Below, piece after piece: positions 19,241 through 53,154 of a stretch of 64,000 bases of DNA. Under the pieces are notes generated by a model. It searched no databases. It was not told the DNA's origin and worked only from the letters and a program-made list of their open reading frames with translations. The translations under genes and the position numbers were made by a program. The stretch is from Candidatus Dadabacteria bacterium. Lineage in GTDB: Bacteria > Desulfobacterota_D > UBA1144 > Nemesobacterales > CSP1-2. The stretch covers positions 64,001-128,000 of the forward strand of contig CAWDVW010000002.1 in assembly GCA_963805855.1 (NCBI GenBank), read 5' to 3'. Positions within the stretch are counted from its first letter, which is position 1. The number at the start of each line of letters is the position of its first letter.

Positions 19241-20542
19241 TCAGTTATCTAGAATCTCGCTTTTGGCATCAGAATTAATATCGATATAGTAGGGTATATC
19301 ATCGGCCTCAAGAGATGCTAATTCATCCGGAAGTTTTCTCTGTCCTAGCGCCGACAGGTCGCCCCATCGGTTTATAAACTGCCCTGCCCTTGATGCATCA
19401 CCCGCCGCAAACAATTCCAAGAGTGTGAAGGTCATTTCTTCTATATCCGTTTCCAATTTTTTTGTATCAATCTCGAATTTATTTGATTTAGCATTAAAAA
19501 CTATTGAGCCATGTTCCTTAAAGTAGCTGTAGGTCAGAAAGGCAGAAGCCGAATCGGGATAGTTATAAAATCTCCCCCTTCTGATATATCTTAGCATCTC
19601 AGCAATACAAACAAGGTAAGCCTTCAATAGACTTTCGCCTTCTAATAGGCTATCCGTAAGGTATCTCATGATATTCAATGAGATTAAATCGGACTTAAGC
19701 TCATACAGGATCAGATATTCCCTCTCGTGCTGGGTCATGACTTTTCCAAGATTATCCTCTCCACAGAAATGTCCTATGTCATGGCCTCGAAGCCATATGA
19801 GCAATAATTCCCCAATCTGTTTATATTCGAGACCCTCAATTACTGAATATCCATCGAGGAGCTGTTTTGCGATAGCCATCGTAATACATTGAAACCTAAG
19901 TATGTACAAATTTATAAAAACGATTAGTTTTGTAAGGGCGGAAGTATTGGCATTATCGGTCCCTGAGAAAAAAACACATATTGGCTTATGCTTCTGATTC
20001 AGCTCACCTGCAAGGGCAAAAACATCAATGCACCTCATATCGGGAAATTCTAATTTATCCGGAAACTCGTCGGCAACGTTCTTAAATGGCAACTTCTTCA
20101 GGCACACTCTAAATTTATTATCATATCCCTTTACGAGGTCGTCATAAATATTATTCGCAACTCCGACAGCTCCAGAGTAAAGTCTAAGATCATTTTTTTC
20201 GTATGAGAATATCTTCCCTAAAATTAAATTTACATATTCTTCCCCATTCCTATTCAACGATAACGAACACAGGTCATAGATTCCCCGGGAAATAGATTCC
20301 GCCTGTCCCAAATAATCAGCCCTCTCAACCTCCGGTAAATTATCACCTCCTCGTCGTAACAAATCTATCATTTGCTGGAAAATTTCGTTTTCAAGTCTTG
20401 TGTTCAATTCTCCAGCTAGCTGGAGATCATGCATGGCCTCAGTCAACCGAAGCACTTGAAGAAAGTAACGGACCGGGGCTTTCGACCCGTCGTCTATTCT
20501 CAATGAAATATCGACAACAGCGGTTATCTTATAGCTATTCAT
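19241..20542 (-). CDS. Divergent peptidase M49 (DPP III)-like protein
   Basis: HDIGH and downstream ELKSD resemble the HExxH...EExKAD motifs of M49; AEMLRYIR segment. Confidence 0.55.
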   Translation of the reverse strand: MNSYKITAVVDISLRIDDGSKAPVRYFLQVLRLTEAMHDLQLAGELNTRLENEIFQQMIDLLRRGGDNLPEVERADYLGQAESISRGIYDLCSLSLNRNGEEYVNLILGKIFSYEKNDLRLYSGAVGVANNIYDDLVKGYDNKFRVCLKKLPFKNVADEFPDKLEFPDMRCIDVFALAGELNQKHKPICVFFSGTDNANTSALTKLIVFINLYILRFQCITMAIAKQLLDGYSVIEGLEYKQIGELLLIWLRGHDIGHFCGEDNLGKVMTQHEREYLILYELKSDLISLNIMRYLTDSLLEGESLLKAYLVCIAEMLRYIRRGRFYNYPDSASAFLTYSYFKEHGSIVFNAKSNKFEIDTKKLETDIEEMTFTLLELFAAGDASRAGQFINRWGDLSALGQRKLPDELASLEADDIPYYIDINSDAKSEILDN

Positions 20543-20572
20543 AAAATTTCGATTAACTTATAAAAGAAGATA

Positions 20573-22132
20573 CTAGAAATCTTGATGCTCTTTCCTTACC
20601 AGGTCCAGTATCGTTTTTACAGGATTGAACGTCACAATAGGCACTTCTATCAATATCGTGATCCAGTTTGCCATCGATCCATTCCAGAGACCAGGAAGCT
20701 CAAGTGCTTTTAAGTAGTTGCCGTCCTTGGATCTTGTCGATATAAAAGCGTTCGAGGGATCCCGAAAGGCCCTTAAATCAAACTGTCTACCTTTGTAATC
20801 TCTGACCCCGCACACTATATCAACCGGGTTAAAATGAGTCGATGATTCCCATATTTTCTTCTGCTCAGGGTTTTCCATATCAACTTGTGATGATTCCACA
20901 ATTTGCAAGGAAAGTGTACCGTCACCGTGTTGAACCCAGAAAGGGCCACCCCCGGGCTCACCCTGATTTTTAACAACCCCACAAATTCTTATCGGTCGAT
21001 TTAGTTTTGAAAATATAAAGTTCTTCATTTTGTCTCTGGAAAGCTTTTCAAAATCGTCTGGCACAAATATAGAAAGCTTTTCCTTTAAAAATCGCACTAT
21101 ATTCCCCATCATTTTCTGATCCAAATCGTTACGAGCGATTATTCCAAGATAATAAAAAATCTCTTTTTGTAATTCAATCAAATAACCAGCCAGGGCCTTT
21201 TTATAAAAATAAATCTCATCTTTAAACGTATCAGGAACCACGTTATCTATGTTCTTTATAAAAATAATATCCCCTCTGAGATCATTGAGGATTTCCAGGA
21301 GGGCACCATGACCTGCTGCCCGAAATAAAAGTTTATTGTCTTCCGCTCTAAAAGGTTTGTTATCCAAATCGACAGCAATAGTATCAGTTGAAGATCTTTG
21401 GATAGAAAAGGCAATATCAAGCGTGACCTCTTCATTCTCATATCTAGTCCTTACGTTTTCTAAATGGTCACCTATTCGCCTCTCATGCTCCTCTGCGACA
21501 GTAAAATGAACTCTGGCAATCCCACTCTTATCCCTTACATAAGCAGCAGCCTCGACGAGATGCTCTTCAAAAGGTGTTCGAGAGTGGTCGGCGTATCGGT
21601 GAAATTTGATCAGACCCTTGGGAAGATTCCCATAGTTCAATCCCCTGGGGGTTAGCATATATTCCATTATCTCTTTAAACTGTCCTTTTGATATATGATC
21701 TTCTACATCCTTTCCGTTAGCTTTCATTTCAGATTTTAAGTCCTCATAGAAAGCGAACCTCTTTAGATTTTCGATGAAATTCAGGAAGGATTGATGAGCA
21801 ATATCACCCTTTTCAGCCTCAGCTCTGATAATCTTATGGTCAATTTCATCATAATGATTGTAAAAGGAATGCGGCAATCTGAACATACGACTCGCTTCAC
21901 CGGACGCCGGAACAAATTTCATCAATTCCCTTTCCGCGGGTGCGCCTGCAAAAATGCCCGCCAGTCTTTCAAGCTCGTATTCATTTATTTTGAGGATACC
22001 ATCGCCAATCGTGGCAGGGCGATTCAGAATCGTAAACGGCAATCCTTTTCTAAAAGTCTCGATTTGCAACATGACTCTATCAAGAGTTAATCCGTGGGAC
22101 TCAATCTGTTTTATGTCATCTTCAGAAAACAT
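20573..22132 (-). CDS. DUF4301 family protein
   Basis: KFVPASG, PKGLIKFH, IKNIDNV, GEPGGGPFW, THFNPVD, LELPGLWNG motifs. Confidence 0.88.
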   Translation of the reverse strand: MFSEDDIKQIESHGLTLDRVMLQIETFRKGLPFTILNRPATIGDGILKINEYELERLAGIFAGAPAERELMKFVPASGEASRMFRLPHSFYNHYDEIDHKIIRAEAEKGDIAHQSFLNFIENLKRFAFYEDLKSEMKANGKDVEDHISKGQFKEIMEYMLTPRGLNYGNLPKGLIKFHRYADHSRTPFEEHLVEAAAYVRDKSGIARVHFTVAEEHERRIGDHLENVRTRYENEEVTLDIAFSIQRSSTDTIAVDLDNKPFRAEDNKLLFRAAGHGALLEILNDLRGDIIFIKNIDNVVPDTFKDEIYFYKKALAGYLIELQKEIFYYLGIIARNDLDQKMMGNIVRFLKEKLSIFVPDDFEKLSRDKMKNFIFSKLNRPIRICGVVKNQGEPGGGPFWVQHGDGTLSLQIVESSQVDMENPEQKKIWESSTHFNPVDIVCGVRDYKGRQFDLRAFRDPSNAFISTRSKDGNYLKALELPGLWNGSMANWITILIEVPIVTFNPVKTILDLVRKEHQDF

Positions 22133-22347
22133 TAGCTCACCTATAATCCATATCCCTCTTGGCCGCTAAAAACGCTACAAAGGTTAGAGATTTTTCAAGT
22201 CTAACCCTATTCAATCTAGATAAGTATACATAACCGATATGAAGTTTCTTTAATTTTGAACCTAGTGTAGATTTCACATTCTAACTCTCTTAATATCTCC
22301 TTCGACTGGCCCAAGGAGTCAAGGACAGGCTAGCCGCGAATAGACAT

Positions 22348-22372
22348 GTAGCGGAGGACTTCAGTCCTCCAC
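22348..22372. repeat. GTAG-type REP copy
   Basis: GTAGCGGAGGACTTCAGTCCTCCAC, close to the reverse complement of 17575-17599. Confidence 0.65.
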
Positions 22373-22587
22373 TTATCTTCGAATCGATAACGAAAAGAGA
22401 GAACAAGAAAGAGGAAGGACCTGATACCGGAAGTCTGACAGATAATTCGCGAAATAGCGAGGGAGAGCAACAAAAAGAAAAATAACTCATTTACTCACGC
22501 CTGACCCCATCTACTAAAGTCGGTTTTAAGAGTGAAGAAAACGCCACACCGGCTGATTTAACTTCCTCATATCACACAAGTATTGTA

Positions 22588-22666
22588 TGGCGGGGCCGAC
22601 GGGACTTGAACCCGCGACCTCTGGCTTGACAGGCCAGCGTTCTAAACCGGACTGAACTACGGCCCC
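22588..22666 (-). tRNA. tRNA-Asp(GTC)
   Basis: GGGGCCG acceptor, CT-GTC-AA loop, CCA end. Confidence 0.96.
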
Positions 22667-22675
22667 CCATTCAAC

Positions 22676-22752
22676 GGATACATGATGCATGATGCAGGAT
22701 ACATGATAAAGAATGAAACAGAATCATTTACCCTGCATCGTGTATCGTGCAT
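22676..22752. repeat. Degenerate 7-bp tandem repeat (GATGCAG/GATACAT) with inverted partner
   Basis: GGATACATGATGCATGATGCAGGATACATGAT followed by CCTGCATCGTGTATCGTGCAT. Confidence 0.7.
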
Positions 22753-22753
22753 G

Positions 22754-22828
22754 TGGTGGGCGGTACCGGTTTCGAACCAGTGACCTCTTGCTTGTAAGGC
22801 AAGCGCTCTCCCGCTGAGCTAACCGCCC
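22754..22828 (-). tRNA. tRNA-Val(TAC)
   Basis: GGGCGGT acceptor, CT-TAC-AA loop, CCA end. Confidence 0.96.
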
Positions 22829-23002
22829 AAAAACAACCTATTTAATATATGCAATATCTCCTAATTTAAAAGGGCTTATTCTTATAACTGAAAATCCCCA
22901 CTTTGTCTAACACTTTACCTGAGAGGAGAAAGATTATATTCATTTTCGCCGAATCAGAGCCTTTCTCGAATTTTAATAAATTCGGACTTCCCTCTAAACA
23001 GA

Positions 23003-23037
23003 AACTCCCTCTTTGTTTTCCAAACAAAGAGGGAGTT
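23003..23037 (-). terminator. Hairpin downstream of lon, probable terminator
   Basis: Perfect 16-bp inverted repeat AACTCCCTCTTTGTTT / AAACAAAGAGGGAGTT. Confidence 0.7.
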
Positions 23038-23068
23038 CAGAAATTATCTCGTAGTAAATCAATTTCCC

Positions 23069-25507
23069 TTACGACAGATTTACATTGGGCCTGACCTCAC
23101 CCTGCGGTATAGTGGTCGGCGGCGGCACGACGATATCGTGAAGTATCGGCTCCTCTGATATTATCGCCTCTCTTAGAACCTCGTCCATGTGCTCTACCAT
23201 CGTTAGCTCTACGTCCTTCAATATATTAGTGCGTATGTCCCTGAGATCGTTCTCGTTCTCCTTTGGTATTATCACCTTCTTCACCCTTCCCCTGTGCGCT
23301 GCCAGGATCTTCTCCTTCAACCCGCCTATCGGTAACACCCTCCCCCTTAACGTTATCTCTCCTGTCATCGCTATATCATGACTTATTGGCTTCTTCACCA
23401 ATGCACTCACTATCGCCGTCGCTATCGCTATTCCCGCTGATGGCCCATCCTTCGGCGTCGCTCCCTCCGGTACGTGTATATGTATATCCACCTTCTGATA
23501 AAATAACCTCTCCAACCCCAGCTTCTCCGCCCTACTCCTTACATAACTCATCGCCGCCTGCGCACTCTCCTGCATCACCTCTCCTAACTTCCCTGTCACC
23601 GTAAACGTTCCCTTCCCAGGCACTATCGATACCTCTATCGTTAATAACTCTCCCCCTACCTCTGTCCATGCCAGCCCAGTTGCTATCCCTACCTGGTCCC
23701 TCTCCTCTATCTCCCCATACTTGAACTTCGGTACCCCTAAGTACCTCTGCCCCTGTATATTATTCGAATTTATCCTTACCCCATGCTCTACCCCCTTCTT
23801 CACTACCTCCTTTGCCACCTTCCTGCACAACGTCGCCAACTCCCTCTCCAATGTCCTTACTCCTGCCTCCCTCGTATACCTCCTTATCACAGCCAATAAC
23901 CCACTGTCCGTTATCCCTATGTTCTTACCCTTCAGCCCATGCGCCTCTATCTGCTTCGGTATCAAAAACCTCTTCGCTATCTCTACCTTCTCGTCCTCCG
24001 TATACCCAGGCAACCTTATTATCTCCATCCTGTCCTGCAGCGCCCACGGTATTGTGTGCAATACATTCGCCGTCGTTATGAAAAATACATTCGATAAATC
24101 ATAATCTACCTCTATATAATGATCATTGAATGTCTTGTTCTGCTCGGGGTCCAATCCCTCTAGCAATGCCGACGCCGGATCCCCCCTGAAATCCACTCCA
24201 AGCTTGTCTATCTCATCCAATAAAAATACCGGGTTCACCGTCCCCGCCTTCCTCATCCCCTGTATGATCTTCCCAGGCAATGCTCCTATATACGTCCTCC
24301 TGTGCCCCCTTATCTCCGCCTCATCTCTAACTCCTCCAAGAGATACCCTCACGAACTTCCTGCCCATCGCCCTCGCTATAGACTTCGCCAACGATGTCTT
24401 CCCTACTCCGGGCGGCCCCACAAAACACAGTATCGGCCCCCTCAGCTTCTTCGTTAGTGCCCTCACCGCCAAATACTCTATTATCCTCTCCTTCGGCTTC
24501 TCCAACCCATAGTGATCCTCATCCAGTATCTTCCCTGCCTCCTCTATATCCAGACTGTCCTCTGTCATCTCATTTGTCCACGGTAGCCCCAAAAGCCACT
24601 CTATATAGTTCCTAACCACAGTAGCCTCTGCCGACATCGGCGACATCATCTTGAGCTTCTTTAGCTCCCTCTTCACCTTCTGCTCAACCTCTTCCGGTAA
24701 TACCTTCTTCTTCAGCTTCTCCTCAAACTCCTGTATCTCCGACTTCAGATCGTCCTTCTCTCCCAGTTCCTTCTGTATAGCCCTCATTTGCTCAGTAAGA
24801 TAGTATTCCTTCTGGGCCTTTTCCATCTGCTTTTTCACCCTTGTCCTGATGCGCTTCTCTATCTGAAGAATTTCGACCTCTGACTGAATCTTTTCGTATA
24901 GCTTCTCGAGCCTCTCGGCTGGGTTGAGTGTCTCCAGTATCTCCTGCTTATCCTCAAGCTTCAGACCAAGATGCGATGCAATAGTATCCGCAAGACGATT
25001 CGGCTCCTGAATCGACGAGACTGTGACCAATACCTCGGAGGGAATCTTCTTATTGAGCTTCACATAGTTCTCAAAAGCCGTGACAATTGTACGCATGAGA
25101 GCTTCGCTCTCAACACCGAGTTTCCCCTCGTCGGTCAGCACCTCAGCGTCAACCAGGAAAAAGCCGGGATTGGGAACATAACTTATGATCTTTGCCCTTT
25201 TCTTTCCCTCGATCAGTACCTTGACGGTCCCATCTGGCAGACGGAGCATCTGAACTATGGTCCCGACAGTGCCAATCCTGTAAATATCCTCTTCTTTAGG
25301 ATCGTTTGTGTTTGCATCCTTTTGAGCAGCGAGAAGTATCTCCTTCTCCTTCTTCATCGCCTCTTCGAGGGCGCGTATAGACTTCTCACGACCCACAAAA
25401 AGCGGCGCTACCATATAAGGGAAAATTACAACATCCCTGAGGGGTAGAAGTGTAATCTTAATTACTTCTTGTTTTTTTTCATCATCAATTTTAAAGAACA
25501 TTGGCAT
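23069..25507 (-). CDS. lon: ATP-dependent Lon protease
   Basis: [10 protein letters not shown], Walker [17 protein letters not shown], catalytic [14 protein letters not shown]. Confidence 0.98.
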
Positions 25508-25540
25508 TCTTCACCCCCTAAGTGACTTAGTACGCAAAAT

Positions 25541-26815
25541 CTATGTCCCCAACCGCCTCTCTTCTTCATAGAAGAACAAAGGAGTCGCTGTACCGTGGAT
25601 CACCTCCTCCGTTATGATGCATCGCCTAAGACCATTTAACGAAGGAACCTCATATGAGATATCGAGCATAATTGATTCTATAATTGCTCGAAGACCCCTC
25701 GCACCAGTCTTTCTCTTAATTGCCTCCTTAGAGATGGCCTTGAGTGCACCCTCCGTAACTTCTAACTCAACACCCTCCAGTTCCATCAGCTTCTGGAACT
25801 GCTTAATAACCGCGTTTTTCGGCTTTGTAAGAATCTCAAGGAAGGTTCTTTCATCCAGCTCTTCAAGAGTAGCTACAACCGGAATCCTACCAACAAATTC
25901 AGGTATCAAACCGTAATGAATGAGATCTTCCGGTTGAACCTCTTTCAGTAACAGCCCTAAATCCTTTTCCACATTGTTGCCTATATTAGCCTCAAAACCT
26001 ATAGACTTTTCTCCTATTCTCCTCGCTATCAAGTCCTCAAGCCCACAAAATGCTCCTCCGCAAATAAATAGTATATTTGTCGTATCTATATGAATAAACT
26101 CCTGCTGTGGATGTTTTCTTCCGCCCTTCGGAGGAACATTTGCCTTGGTCCCTTCCATAATTTTTAAAAGAGCCTGCTGAACACCCTCGCCCGATACATC
26201 CCTCGTAATCGAAGGGCTATCGCCCGTCTTGCGGGCAAGCTTATCAATTTCGTCGATGTAGATTATCCCCTTTGAGGCCTTTTCTATATCATAATCAGCA
26301 GCCTGGAGAAGGCTTACAATCATATTCTCAACGTCCTCTCCGACATAACCAGCCTCGGTATAACATGTAGCATCGACAATAGTAAAGGGCACATCGAGAA
26401 ACTTTGCCAGAGTTTGAGCCAATAACGTTTTTCCACAGCCAGTGGGACCAATATTCAGTATATTACTCTTTTGGATCTCAACATCCTTACTTCTCTTCCC
26501 ACTGAATGCGGTATGCTCGACCCTCTTATAATGATTATAAACCGCAACAGCTAATACCTTTTTTGCCCTCTCCTGCCCGATGACATATTCGTCTAAAAAG
26601 CTCTTTATTTGGGAAGGCGTTGGTAGAGCCGAATAGCGTTTCTTAAGTTGTCCCTCTTTAGCCTCTTCATCCGCGATTATCTCGTTGCATAGTTCGATGC
26701 ACTCGTTACAGATATATACCGTCGGACCTGCGATCAGCTTCCTAACTTCTTTTTGGCTCTTGCCGCAGAACGAGCAAAAAAGCTTACCTTCTTTTCCGTC
26801 ACGCCTGGTAGTCAC
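25541..26815 (-). CDS. clpX: ClpX ATPase
   Basis: C4 zinc finger [39 protein letters not shown] loop. Confidence 0.98.
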
Positions 26816-27411
26816 TTTATAGCCTCCTGCCTATTAGTTATTATAGCATCCACTATGCCATATTCACAGGCATCTTTAGCCGTCAGAAAAAAATCCCTTT
26901 CTGTATCCCTTTCAATCTTGTCTATGGGCTGACCTGTGTGCTCGGCGAGTATGTGATTTAATTCTTGGCGAACCCTCAAAATCTCTCTTGCATGTATATC
27001 GATTTCAGTAGCTTGCCCCTCAAACCCACCTAAGACCTGATGTAACAATACACGTGCGTGTGGAAGAGCATATCTTTTTCCCTTGGTTCCTGCCGCGAGA
27101 AGTACTGCACCCATGCTGGCGGCTTGCCCGATACACATAGTCGCCACATGTGGCTTTATGTATTGTATAGTGTCATATATTGCAAGACCCGCTGTGACGT
27201 GCCCGCCCGGGGAATTTACGTACAGATAAATATCCTTCTCGGGATTCTCCGACTCCAGGACCAGAAGCTGAGCTATTACGGTATCGGCAACCGCGTCTGT
27301 AATTGGTGATCCCAAAAAAACTATTCTATCTTTTAGGAGTCGAGAAAAGATATCGTATGCCCGTTCACCCCTACTGGTCTGCTCAATAACGATGGGCATA
27401 AAATTGGTCAT
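26812..27411 (-). CDS. clpP: ClpP proteolytic subunit
   Basis: [23 protein letters not shown]. Confidence 0.98.
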
Positions 27412-27434
27412 ATCGTAGTTTTATTATACAGATA

Positions 27435-28739
27435 CTAACTTTTATTGTCAATTTGATTCTTTTCCCCTAAGACCTCTTCTATCCTTGCTTTTTCGATTAG
27501 AAAATCGACCACTTTCTCTTCGAGAATGCTTTCCCGTAACCCGTCGAGCATACTGTTTGATCGATAGGCTTCCCTCACCTGCTCATAAGGGACATCGAAC
27601 GATTTGGAAATTTCCGACAGTCTTCTGTCAACCTCGCCACTGGTGACATCTATTCCCTCCTTTTTTGCGATTGCCCCAAGAACAATGGATGACTTAACGT
27701 TAACACTAGCCCTATCAGTGATCGACTTTTCAGCCTTTTCATCGAATTTAGGAACCCTGAGCCCCTGTCTCTGGAGATTAAACAGAAATTCGCGCTTAAG
27801 CCTCATAGATTCTTCTTCAACCAAACTATTAGGAATATCAAAGGCCTTGTTCTCGATAAGTTTATTGATGAGATCTGTTCTTAACTTATTACTGGAATCT
27901 GCTTGGTGCCTCTTTTCCAAATCTTCTCGAATCTTTTTTTTCAACGATTCAAGGTTCTCTTCGCCGAGATCCTTTGCAAATTCATCATCCAGATTTGGCA
28001 AGATCCTCTCCAGTATATCCTTCAATCGCAATTCAAAATTGACCGTTTTCCCAGCAGCCTCACGTACCTGAAAATCCTCACCGTACGATACATCAAAGTT
28101 CTTTACTTCCCCTTTTTTCAACCCGATTATAGCGTCTTCAAACTCTGGAATTAATTGACCCTCTCCGAGTACAAACTGAACATCTGATTTTTTAAGATCT
28201 TCTAATGACTTTCCTTCAAGGGTTCCTTCATAATCAATCATTACAACATCACCTTTTGCAGCCTCCCTGTCATTTTCAATTGGCTTAGCATCTGCAGAAC
28301 GGTTTCTGAGTCGATCCAGTACAATGCTCACCTCGTCTTCTTCGACTTCCACCTTTTCCCTCTTTAGTTCAATACCGATATAATCATCAAGCTCAAAATC
28401 CGGGATTATCTCAAAGACCGCGGAATAGTGAAATTCTTTGTCAGTCTCTACCTTGTCCGTAGTCAAATTGGGCCGGGATACCGGAGTCACAGAAGCTTCC
28501 TGAAGCGCTTCTTGAAAAGAATCGGAAACCAATCTGGACGAAACCTCATTAAATATCTGCTTTCCATATACTGATTCTATGACCCTTCTAGGAACCTTTC
28601 CGGGGCGAAATCCCCTAACCTTCGCAGATTTTTGGAATTCCCTAAATACCTCTTCTAACTTCTCTTTCACCAGTTCAGGTTGAAGAAAGACATCGAGCTT
28701 TCTTTCGGTACTGCTGAGCGTTTCTAAATTTACTTTCAT
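27435..28739 (-). CDS. tig: Trigger factor
   Basis: GFRPGKVP ribosome-binding motif, FKBP domain, synteny with clpPX-lon. Confidence 0.97.
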   Translation of the reverse strand: MKVNLETLSSTERKLDVFLQPELVKEKLEEVFREFQKSAKVRGFRPGKVPRRVIESVYGKQIFNEVSSRLVSDSFQEALQEASVTPVSRPNLTTDKVETDKEFHYSAVFEIIPDFELDDYIGIELKREKVEVEEDEVSIVLDRLRNRSADAKPIENDREAAKGDVVMIDYEGTLEGKSLEDLKKSDVQFVLGEGQLIPEFEDAIIGLKKGEVKNFDVSYGEDFQVREAAGKTVNFELRLKDILERILPNLDDEFAKDLGEENLESLKKKIREDLEKRHQADSSNKLRTDLINKLIENKAFDIPNSLVEEESMRLKREFLFNLQRQGLRVPKFDEKAEKSITDRASVNVKSSIVLGAIAKKEGIDVTSGEVDRRLSEISKSFDVPYEQVREAYRSNSMLDGLRESILEEKVVDFLIEKARIEEVLGEKNQIDNKS

Positions 28740-52089: not shown

Positions 52090-53154
52090 TCAAATCAATC
52101 CATAAGCATAACTCTCCTTATTCTTCCACACGTATCTTATCCTGTTCAATAACTTCTTGGCGATCCGAACTATCGCTTTCTGCTTGGTCATCCGCCTGAT
52201 CAATTGACTAAACACATGCCCCAAAGCCGGATCTTCTCGTATCGCTACCCACGCTGCCTCTATCAGTAAGTACCGTAAATACCGGTTACGCCGAAAGCTG
52301 AGCCCCAGAGTGCTCTCCCTCTCCCCAGAACTACTTACCGATGGCACTAACCCCGCATAACTAGCAAGATCGTCTATACTCCTGAACCGACTCATATCCA
52401 TCAGTTCCCCATATAATGTCATCGCTGTTACAAAACCAACCCCTGGCACACTACGCAGATTCTTTACCTCTTCCCCAAACCCGTATTCCCGATAATACTT
52501 CCGCACCAACTTCACTACCTCTGCTAAACGCCTTCGATGACTTTCTAGCTCCTCGAGACATAGCCTAAGATAATCCCTACCCATCCCGTATGAAAACTCT
52601 AATGTCTTTAACCACCTTATAAATCCCCCAGACCAGTGACCAATCTCATCATGGCGCGGTATGACATAACCATAGAATGCTAAATACCCCTTGATCCGAT
52701 TCTTAAGCCGAGTTTGCGACTGTACCACCTTAAATCTGAGCCTGCACAATGATCGCAATTGTTGGTGAAATTCATCCGGTACATATATCCCTCTCAATGA
52801 CCCATTCTCTAGCTCTCGTGCCAGCTTACGGCTATCCACCTTGTCGGTCTTTGTCGATTTCTCCTTCTGGGTACTAGGCACATCTGCCGGATTGATTACT
52901 ATATTGTTAAACCCGTACCTCTTTAACTCCCGATCAATCCAGTACCCACAGAATCCTGCTTCATACACACTGTGATAGTTTCCTCCCGGATAACGCTTGT
53001 GCATATATCCGTACAGTTGCTCCGGTGATGGATCCATGGAGAAAGTCTTTAACTCCATGCCGTTAGTCCTGACTGTTACTTTCCAGCTCTTCTTATGCAC
53101 ATCTATGCCTAGAAAAAAATCTTGATTTGTGTAATCTATACTTTGTCTATTCAT
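52090..53154 (-). CDS. IS110-family DEDD transposase/recombinase
   Basis: GIDVH, YEAG, KTDKVDS; VPGVG...SYAGLVP...SSG. Confidence 0.95.
   Translation of the reverse strand: MNRQSIDYTNQDFFLGIDVHKKSWKVTVRTNGMELKTFSMDPSPEQLYGYMHKRYPGGNYHSVYEAGFCGYWIDRELKRYGFNNIVINPADVPSTQKEKSTKTDKVDSRKLARELENGSLRGIYVPDEFHQQLRSLCRLRFKVVQSQTRLKNRIKGYLAFYGYVIPRHDEIGHWSGGFIRWLKTLEFSYGMGRDYLRLCLEELESHRRRLAEVVKLVRKYYREYGFGEEVKNLRSVPGVGFVTAMTLYGELMDMSRFRSIDDLASYAGLVPSVSSSGERESTLGLSFRRNRYLRYLLIEAAWVAIREDPALGHVFSQLIRRMTKQKAIVRIAKKLLNRIRYVWKNKESYAYGLI

Follow-up and report, generated by a model that had tools for sequence, protein, structure and literature searches.

The lon gene of a Candidatus Dadabacteria bacterium, which encodes the protease LonA, is a single gene with two stable synonymous codon regimes, one of them as extreme as that of tuf, the gene for elongation factor Tu (EF-Tu), and long kept in two genera. 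The gene lies on the reverse strand of a 64,000-nucleotide (nt) stretch of genomic DNA (GenBank assembly GCA_963805855.1, contig CAWDVW010000002.1, positions 64,001 to 128,000), which we call the window and whose coordinates are used wherever no contig (C and a number) is named. An initial annotation, made by a model from the sequence alone, had reported a codon switch inside lon; nucleotide skew, codon counts, and a Fisher test all bear it out, and the switch is extreme. The bias is regional, strand specific, and independent of residue conservation, and it is not predicted by the tRNA gene set. We put at roughly 45% the probability that codons ~250 to 812 are kept in this state by a selective regime that acts, strand specifically and across the whole region, on coding-strand or mRNA composition.

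Purine-ending codons were counted among the codons for A, G, I, L, P, R, S, T, and V, all of which can be encoded by codons ending in a purine as well as by codons ending in a pyrimidine. Their share was 40% in lon codons 1 to 180 and 90% in codons 250 to 735 (Fisher p=1.6e-23; Table 1 gives the counts for all four parts of the gene). For comparison, tuf reached 206/243 and the remainder of the genome 0.51. In 30-codon windows the purine share at third positions (R3) climbed from 0.37 to 0.60 in codons 1 to 165 to 0.73 to 0.93 in codons 240 to 735, and the share of C at third positions (C3) in most windows of the latter region was 0.00 to 0.10, with values up to 0.17 around codons 435 to 465. 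The GC skew of the forward strand in 300-nt windows was −0.40 to −0.62 from 23150 to 24799 versus −0.02 to −0.31 elsewhere in positions 20000 to 28000. Least squares placed the main change point at codon ~249 (position ~24761); the rise in skew begins near codon 181 (~24967), earlier than the position of about 24790 given by the initial annotation. On the 3′ side there is no sharp edge, only a gradual decay. An invariant block at residues ~20 to 60 is unrecoded.

The standing of this segment in the genome was assessed with gene calls from a simple longest-ORF (open reading frame) heuristic, which includes some spurious ORFs. Among 31,065 windows of 900 nt genome-wide, the absolute GC skew exceeded 0.45 only at the lon segment and at two tuf genes. 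The initial annotation had allowed that the skew might fall within the range of other conserved genes; it does not, and only the two tuf loci match lon. Of the 1142 ORFs of at least 300 codons, the highest fractions of G at third positions (G3) over any 300 codons were found in tuf (0.60 and 0.597) and lon (0.577); the best 300-codon values of all others were 0.251 ± 0.048, with a maximum, 0.49, in a high-GC island. When likeness to tuf was scored as the log-likelihood of tuf usage versus genome usage, the best 100-codon windows scored 0.97 in tuf, 0.875 in lon, and 0.28 in the next ORF.

The two genes also share one codon set, namely GAG, AAG, CAG, AGG, ATA, GCG, GGG, ACG, CCG, GTR, and TTR. 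In lon codons 241 to 735 versus tuf, GAG was used at 47/49 versus 39/41 sites, AAG at 44/44 versus 23/23, CAG at 13/13 versus 9/9, AGG at 31/32 versus 19/24, and ATA at 39/41 versus 22/26, and GCG, GGG, ACG, CCG, GTA/GTG, and TTG/TTA predominate in both. In the same part of lon, AGT replaces AGC (7:0) and arginine is encoded without any CGN codon, while the C/T ratios at Asp, His, and Asn codons of the core are typical of the genome. The core thus uses the preferred codons of its reference gene, tuf, but the usage does not extend over the whole coding sequence of lon. In tuf the bias stops at the limits of the ORF: the flanks are ordinary, the adjoining fusA is ordinary to its last codon, and the 99.2% identity between the two copies covers the ORF exactly (1181 bases). 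Runs of purine-ending codons (36 to 45 codons with at most 3 to 4 exceptions) were also tried as a signature; many dozens of loci in the genome matched, so it was not applied to relatives. We read this lack of specificity as partly due to purine-rich first codon positions.

Table 1 Coordinates of lon, its parts, its neighbors, and the two tuf copies
Feature	Position	Strand	Remarks
lon (LonA protease)	23069..25507	-	812 codons plus stop; from ORF list and Pfam
lon codons 1-180, ordinary codon usage; N-terminal substrate-binding domain	24968..25507	-	Purine-ending 43/107; tuf-likeness -0.76 to -2.0
lon codons 181-249, transition zone, purine-ending share climbing	24761..24967	-	Purine-ending 17/32; from sliding windows
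lon codons 250-735, recoded core (AAA+ ATPase, lid, protease)	23303..24760	-	Purine-ending 271/301; G3 0.58; tuf codon set
lon codons 736-812 plus stop, bias decaying; poorly conserved C-terminal tail	23069..23302	-	Purine-ending 36/48; tuf-likeness ~-0.04 (residues 746-812)
tRNA-Val (TAC), downstream of lon	22754..22828	-	ARAGORN, C2 86754-86828
tRNA-Asp (GTC), downstream of lon	22588..22666	-	ARAGORN, C2 86588-86666
clpX, immediately upstream of lon, ordinary codon usage	25541..26815	-	ORF list; synteny with G001 C52, G002 C184, G007 C58
tuf copy	C4:60539-61723
tuf copy	C7:318876-320060

We call the genome under study G000; G001 and G002 are its congeners, G007 belongs to a sister genus, and relationships among genomes rest on identities rather than on a tree. 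The protein is an intact LonA of 812 amino acids. Its Pfam matches are LON_substr_bdg (180 bits, residues 18 to 207), AAA (86 bits, residues 360 to 498), Lon_lid (75 bits), and Lon_C (307 bits, residues 587 to 783), and GPPGVGKTS and PKDGPSAG motifs are seen in the uninterrupted translation, in agreement with the earlier description of a canonical Lon. That description had also singled out a deviation from the motif ALLEVLDPEQN as an oddity; the usual motif in the order is ALLEALDPEQN, and the G variant of G000 also occurs in two unrecoded genomes, G019 and G025.

It is very unlikely that the switch reflects classical translational selection, whether through tRNA supply or through accuracy at important residues. 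The direction of the bias does track expected expression (tuf, groEL, ribosomal-protein-like ORFs), because the mildly shifted ORFs look like highly expressed genes; named by eye, they resemble the two GroEL copies, an ammonium transporter (Amt), ribosomal proteins, thioredoxin, SSB, and EF-P. Most preferred codons also end in G and have a dedicated tRNA gene with C at anticodon position 34. However, the tRNA genes found by ARAGORN number 46, with practically one for each anticodon (at 94% completeness, a tRNA gene could be absent from the assembly), and the preferred codons do not follow gene copies. GGG is preferred though no tRNA-Gly-CCC was found among these 46 genes of the 94% complete genome; arginine is AGG and never CGN, CGG included, although three tRNA genes read CGN codons; serine takes AGT in preference to AGC though one tRNA reads both; and ATA requires a minor Ile tRNA. 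A ranking of G > A > T ≥ C at free positions fits the data better than any tRNA rule. An effect of tRNA dosage was considered and ruled out, given the single-copy tRNA genes and a codon choice that tracks composition. As for accuracy, an Akashi-type comparison gave core R3 values of 0.94 at variable and 0.92 at invariant sites (odds ratio, 0.78; p=0.57), so that invariant residues showed no enrichment; poorly conserved bins of the core are as biased as conserved bins, and the bias is uneven along lon.

Predicted folding of the core was −22.6 kcal/mol per 120 nt, compared to −25.9 ± 1.2 for recodes with genome usage and −29.9 and −33.5 for unrecoded orthologues, but it equaled that of same-codon shuffles (z = −0.9), and a sequence kept for minimal structure should prefer A to G, not the reverse. 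The weakening of folding is modest and purely compositional, which leaves weak support for the unstructured mRNA suggested by the initial annotation. Shine-Dalgarno (SD)-like motifs occur in the core at 46 per kb versus 10 ± 4.6 in the genome; both these motifs and GGG runs exceed the genome norm four- to fivefold yet stay below same-codon shuffles (z about −2.4 and −4.3), and we rejected them as selection targets and regard them as tolerated by-products. Dinucleotides of a pyrimidine followed by C number 3.7 per 100 nt versus 10.1 ± 2.0 in the genome, and the fraction of 78-nt windows with more C than G is 0.00 in the core, 0.21 to 0.23 in orthologues, and 0.26 on average in the genome. The genome encodes Rho (Rho_RNA_bind, 110 bits, at C5:887720), and by sequence the core has the composition of a transcript free of Rho utilization (rut) sites, so that it is compatible with Rho-proofing. 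Among amino acid replacements relative to the family consensus, 13 raised and 4 lowered the purine content of the codon in the core (p=0.049); in the N-terminal part the numbers were 7 and 5.

Of the causes named in the initial annotation, selection on the nucleic acid itself fits these results best, as the bias is composition led, regional, and conservation independent and tilts replacements toward purine-rich codons. The sequence of events that we favor would be as follows. Codons ~250 to 812 of lon are in a purine-ending, G-preferring, C-poor regime of the order that otherwise reaches full strength only in tuf (and in groEL in some lineages), and a selective pressure on coding-strand or mRNA composition would maintain it. 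The two sister genera would have inherited the bias from a common ancestor in which it arose once and in which lon was also duplicated, giving loci A and B, and gene conversion would keep the central parts of the two loci alike. The best candidate for the selected property is a transcript that is G rich and C poor throughout and would therefore offer Rho no loading site. No mutational or conversion process known to us makes one strand richer in G and at the same time poorer in C, and the most parsimonious agent is selection that acts on the transcript or on the coding strand.

The distribution among relatives bears on the age of the two biases. All 30 tuf copies recovered from 20 genomes of the order are purine ending (R3, 0.57 to 0.77), and thus the tuf bias is old. 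The lon core matched 91 of 101 genomes of the order at E ≤ 1e-100; besides G000 itself, only G007 exceeded 75% DNA identity (86%). The lon gene of G007, assembled independently, switches at the equivalent codon, to the same codons and from the same starting place. A search for the switch in relatives, which the initial annotation had proposed, found it in G007 alone among the genomes of the order that were searched. There was no switch in 18 full-length lon orthologues from other genera (core R3, 0.47 to 0.59), and the assembly of G010 has neither lon nor clpX and so is uninformative on lon. Among species-representative genomes, an all-purine-ending active-site motif occurs in one contig, C12 of G007. 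Plasmid and phage collections contained ordinary lon homology alone, at no more than 68.2% identity, and the sole match in a scan of metagenome contigs with a 32-base stretch was a contig 100% identical to the window. Sequencing runs in which the segment occurs are labeled marsh, salt marsh, mangrove, and soil; of these, X1 and X5 were compared with the window.

ClpX of G000 is 92% identical to that of G007 and 79 to 87% (at most 87.3%) identical to those of 17 other genomes; by these identities the genus of G007 is nearest to that of G000, and a single origin of the lon bias in the common ancestor of the two genera is the simplest reading. At conserved residues, codon identity between G000 and G007 is 0.725 in the core versus 0.604 expected from codon usage alone, so the extra DNA similarity of the core is mostly shared bias; in the N-terminal part, where locus A is compared with locus B, it is 0.49 versus 0.387. 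By our arithmetic, ~30% of the codons in the core and ~17% in the N-terminal part are unchanged by descent. Despite this ~70% synonymous turnover, the tuf-likeness of recoded lon stayed at 0.54 to 0.57 in both genomes. Between G000 and G001, tuf has 47 synonymous codon differences (pyrimidine to purine, 12; purine to pyrimidine, 10; purine to purine, 15; pyrimidine to pyrimidine, 8), and its codon identity (0.875) lies within the 0.87 to 0.89 of neighboring genes, which amounts to an equal raw synonymous rate. Because synonymous sites have turned over, in both directions in tuf, while the bias stayed, the bias is an equilibrium and neither a frozen relic nor an ameliorating import.

These data make it improbable that lon is a mosaic by import, with a core gained by homologous recombination from a lineage with a strongly biased lon. 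Such an event would account for a change of composition inside one gene and for the finding that G000 and G007 are mutually nearest in the core (0.891 versus 0.81 to 0.85 between G007 and the others) and not in the N-terminal part, and the strength of groEL bias differs greatly among lineages. Against it, the core shares 0.81 to 0.88 identity with relatives, a level in keeping with its more conserved domains; no donor was found in the 101 genomes of the order, the plasmids and phages, or the species representatives, G007 being the only close match; the bias was kept through the turnover described above with no amelioration; and the recoded contig of G007 is of the B type, so its N-terminal part is paralogous to that of G000.

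It is extremely unlikely that the switch is an artefact of assembly or polishing, or that two organisms were joined in a chimera. Short-read assemblies do break at the lon segment, which speaks for such an artefact. However, contigs of sequencing run X1 tile positions 22782 to 26000 with 30-base overlaps, and because one of them (record 4, 24725 to 24907) spans the change point, the junction is not a chimera. The independently assembled G007 has the same switch, and the reading frame and the protein are intact. The chimera that the initial annotation had named as its possible undoing is thus not upheld.

The breaks in assembly probably reflect a second lon locus. In locus A the gene order is tig-clpP-clpX-lon-tRNA-Val/Asp, and the lon of the window is of this type. 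In locus B a sigma-70-family gene lies upstream of lon and is divergently transcribed (G002, G007), with RtcB nearby (G007, G002) or RtcA downstream (G001). Two loci in different contexts were found in G001, G002, and G007. In both congeners lon is present only as end fragments at contig ends, with the middle unassembled; one set of fragments is syntenic with the window, and the other joins the lon ends to different DNA. The B fragments have a C-terminal signature of their own that is common to G001 and G002, so B is a paralogous locus of long standing rather than a strain-level variant. The recoded contig of G007 is of the B type: its divergent upstream gene, sigma-70 family by Pfam, is 77% identical to that in the G002 B fragment, and RtcB near it was confirmed by Pfam (in G002 a nearby ORF has a near-identical C terminus). 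The A-type lon of G007 exists as end fragments on C58 and C689 only. N termini are unrecoded in both locus types and both genera, and in the relatives loci A and B diverge from about the region of codons 736 to 812. The lon-B loci are on G001:C48, G002:C185 and C20, and G007:C12 and C119 (L086, L098, L091, L094, and L097). Their gene neighborhood suggests that lon-B could be a separately regulated copy of Lon linked to stress or RNA damage.

Contigs of loci A and B end at common points, ~25276 and ~23246 in G002 and ~25034 and ~23273 in G001 (window coordinates), as expected from a collapsed repeat. In run X1, a single contig of 1613 bases corresponds to 23142 to 24754 at a depth of 14.9, compared to 7.2 and 8.6 in the flanking contigs; the roughly doubled depth hints at two sequences sharing this contig but does not amount to a copy number. 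From such collapsed assemblies we infer that the interiors of lon A and B are nearly identical, there being no genome with both copies whole. The shared tract reaches codon ~78 in G002, codon ~158 in G001, and codon ~30 in run X1; since it thus extends well into the unrecoded N-terminal part, sharing between A and B does not account for the codon switch. The assembly of G000 (94% complete, 9 contigs) contained neither a second lon nor RtcA, RtcB, or any orthologue of the sigma gene of locus B. The paralogue mosaic or gene conversion proposed in the initial annotation gains a second lon locus that shares the central part in three relatives, but it lacks such a locus in the G000 assembly and a donor, LonA does not stand out within its protein family, and the bias has outlived most synonymous turnover.

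In groEL, the third gene to be considered, this bias extends over the full length in G010, G004, and G015, is patchy in G000 and G002, and is absent in G020, G026, and G030. The two GroEL paralogues of G000 (C5:962316-963980 and C5:992723-994360) are mosaic, with tracts of 90 to 97% versus 72 to 82% DNA identity, and the groEL contigs of G001 break around residues 161 to 200. In G000 the tuf-like bias of groEL peaks inside the most identical tract (codons ~100 to 150), and identity between the copies correlates with tuf-likeness (rho, 0.72; p=0.0008); protein conservation also correlates (rho, 0.64).

A cause linked to recombination is rather unlikely, in our judgment. The bias would accumulate wherever exchange of DNA between paralogous copies, and perhaps between related lineages, is most frequent, either because conversion sharpens weak codon selection or because conversion is itself strand biased, and the boundary in lon would mark long-term conversion frequency rather than function. 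The strongest cases of bias are indeed duplicated genes with homogenized cores, as in tuf; lon occupies two loci in G001, G002, and G007, with central parts that collapse in assembly; the groEL correlation is in the expected direction; both edges of the lon segment are graded; and the effect is regional and conservation independent and tilts replacements, as biased conversion does. Yet 45 multicopy ORFs were not shifted as a group (median, −0.80 versus −0.88), though many may be recent or may lie on redundant contigs. In addition, the tract shared by A and B enters the unrecoded N-terminal part, the groEL correlation is confounded by protein conservation, the strongest groEL bias is that of G010, where one copy was found (cut by a contig end), and the conversion bias that would be needed is, as said, one that we cannot name. 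It is likewise doubtful that a strand-specific compositional drive coupled to gene conversion, or recombination-enhanced selection, is rewriting the homogenized cores of the duplicated genes tuf, groEL, and lon, which serve translation and proteostasis, step by step into a near-deterministic purine-ending code. If it did, higher identity between copies and lineages would feed further recombination, and the edge in lon would be that of a self-reinforcing recombination domain and not a functional one.

Several facts weigh against selection on coding-strand or mRNA composition as the cause. Selection on the whole mRNA or the whole protein should recode codons 1 to 180 too, and these are ordinary in both locus types and both genera. 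This N-terminal exemption of ~180 to 250 codons is the main fact left unexplained, and it keeps alive the explanations by recombination, by a separate expression unit, and by an old import. Expression of Lon at the level of EF-Tu would not be expected, and the groEL genes of G000 show far less bias than lon, which makes lon anomalous if the pressure scales with expression. Avoidance of C is mild in the two-fold pyrimidine families, where by our count T-ending codons make up ~0.69 to 0.72 versus 0.62 genome-wide, a smaller shift than would be predicted if the pressure were purely against Rho. Finally, the bias co-occurs with duplication and homogenization (in tuf, in lon, and partly in groEL), which may point to a recombination-linked cause.

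The stable intragenic boundary common to two genera would be explained if the 3′ part of lon were a separate expression unit, with an internal promoter or start giving an abundant 3′ transcript or an N-truncated Lon (ATPase plus protease) that made heavy use of these codons. We consider this unlikely. A promoter-like site, TTGAGA-16-TACAAT (10/12), lies at 25113 to 25086, and in-frame Met228 is preceded by AGGGTGA, which by eye is like lon's own ribosome-binding site. However, six promoter-like sites were found versus 3.1 ± 1.9 in shuffles, and the hexamers are not kept: the −10 hexamer is TACACT in G001, and both are weaker in G007. Met228 and Met241 are invariant in 20/20 genomes, recoded or not, and the SD-like string follows from the use of AGG for Arg. 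Moreover, the 5′ edge of the bias is graded over ~70 codons, and the bias relaxes ahead of the stop codon. RNA sequencing runs gave isolated 151-base contigs over lon, two in the N-terminal part (X15) and two in the core (X18); the uncovered parts are uninformative.

The bias resembles several known phenomena and differs from each. Expression-linked codon bias of the type reportedly described by Sharp and Li is said to have tuf as its extreme gene. The lon core uses the exact tuf codon set, and the mildly shifted genes are the highly expressed ones that would be expected, but the bias of lon occupies part of a gene, is not predicted by tRNA genes, includes ATA and AGG, and affects a protease not known as abundant. 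Lao and Forsdyke are said to have described how coding strands are loaded with purines (Szybalski's rule). It has also been proposed that stochastic RNA interactions are avoided (PMC5028192). The lon gene is similar in having a strong coding-strand purine excess made by synonymous choices, but these effects are genome-wide or graded by abundance, whereas lon has a step change inside the gene and prefers G over A. Concerted evolution of tufA and tufB by gene conversion was reportedly documented by Abdulkarim and Hughes in 1996. In both systems two dispersed loci have divergent flanks and homogenized interiors, which is direct for tuf here and inferred for lon; the differences are that the gene is lon, that the homogenized tract is larger than the recoded tract, and that the G000 assembly has one locus.

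Mosaic genes of the pbp/penA type arise by homologous recombination. They share with lon an abrupt compositional boundary inside a conserved gene, but for lon no donor was found, the protein relationships are normal, and the state is maintained and not decaying. Differences in codon optimization between conserved and variable domains of a gene have been reported (PMC7374057). Codon usage likewise differs between parts of lon, but the difference in lon is not tied to residue conservation and, in our judgment, far exceeds effects of that kind. Full-text literature, with subscription journals outside its scope, yielded no report of a codon switch in lon or of a purine-ending tuf bias in this group in the parts that were available.

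Synonymous sites are usually taken as nearly neutral or as tuned to expression gene by gene; in lon, two stable regimes adjoin within one gene. Neither tRNA supply nor residue conservation nor folding beyond composition explains its bias. The gene is thus a natural within-gene control for what tuf-type bias is selected for, the candidates being Rho-proofing, RNA stability, avoidance of RNA interactions, and effects of recombination. There is also a practical warning. Recoded segments break short-read metagenome assemblies, as seen in the missing middle of lon in both congeners and in the G007 contig that stops inside the segment; a number of the tuf and groEL matches in relatives are likewise located where contigs end. 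Recoded segments also inflate DNA identity between distant relatives (86% DNA identity at 89% protein identity).

Some further observations were made on lon and its surroundings. The gene has in-frame ATGs at codons 1 and 3 (25499 to 25507), and by eye the ribosome-binding string GGGGGTGA is better spaced for the second. Just past the stop codon, an inverted repeat at ~23003 to 23037 is similar to a terminator hairpin and is kept in G001 and G002; a consensus terminator scan made no call there. Three antisense ORFs on the forward strand (23263 to 23604, 23721 to 24104, and 24126 to 24512) had no Pfam match; we regard them as by-products, because the strand is pyrimidine rich with few stop codons. 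Beyond the two tRNA genes lies a gene for a DUF4301 protein (695 bits; 20573 to 22132, reverse strand), which is syntenic in G001 and G002. Next to the B locus of G001 is a repeat of ~175 bases (L086:2-178) with at least 15 matches of 55 to 177 bases and 72 to 96% identity on C3 and C7 of G000; it may be a miniature mobile element.

Elsewhere in the genome, the small contigs C1 (against C4 and C6) and C8 (against C7) carry several duplicate ORFs at 90% identity or more, which suggests redundant or alternative assembly contigs. In a high-GC island at C5 ~1,045,900 to 1,080,500, G3 ranks next below that of tuf and lon, R3 is near 0.5, and the long ORFs are rich in Arg, Ala, and Pro; the ORFs look like wrong-frame readings of high-GC DNA, and the island may be foreign DNA or a misbinned segment. 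An IS110-family transposase gene, with Pfam matches to DEDD_Tnp_IS110 and Transposase_20, occurs in three near-identical copies, at 52090 to 53154 of the window (reverse strand), C7:152382-153446, and C7:641140-642204. They are mildly shifted toward tuf, with scores of −0.16 to −0.18 and G3 of 0.37 to 0.38 versus a genome mean score of −0.87 ± 0.16, and the milder skew that the initial annotation had seen in the copy in the window is confirmed by its G3 of 0.37 and score of −0.18.

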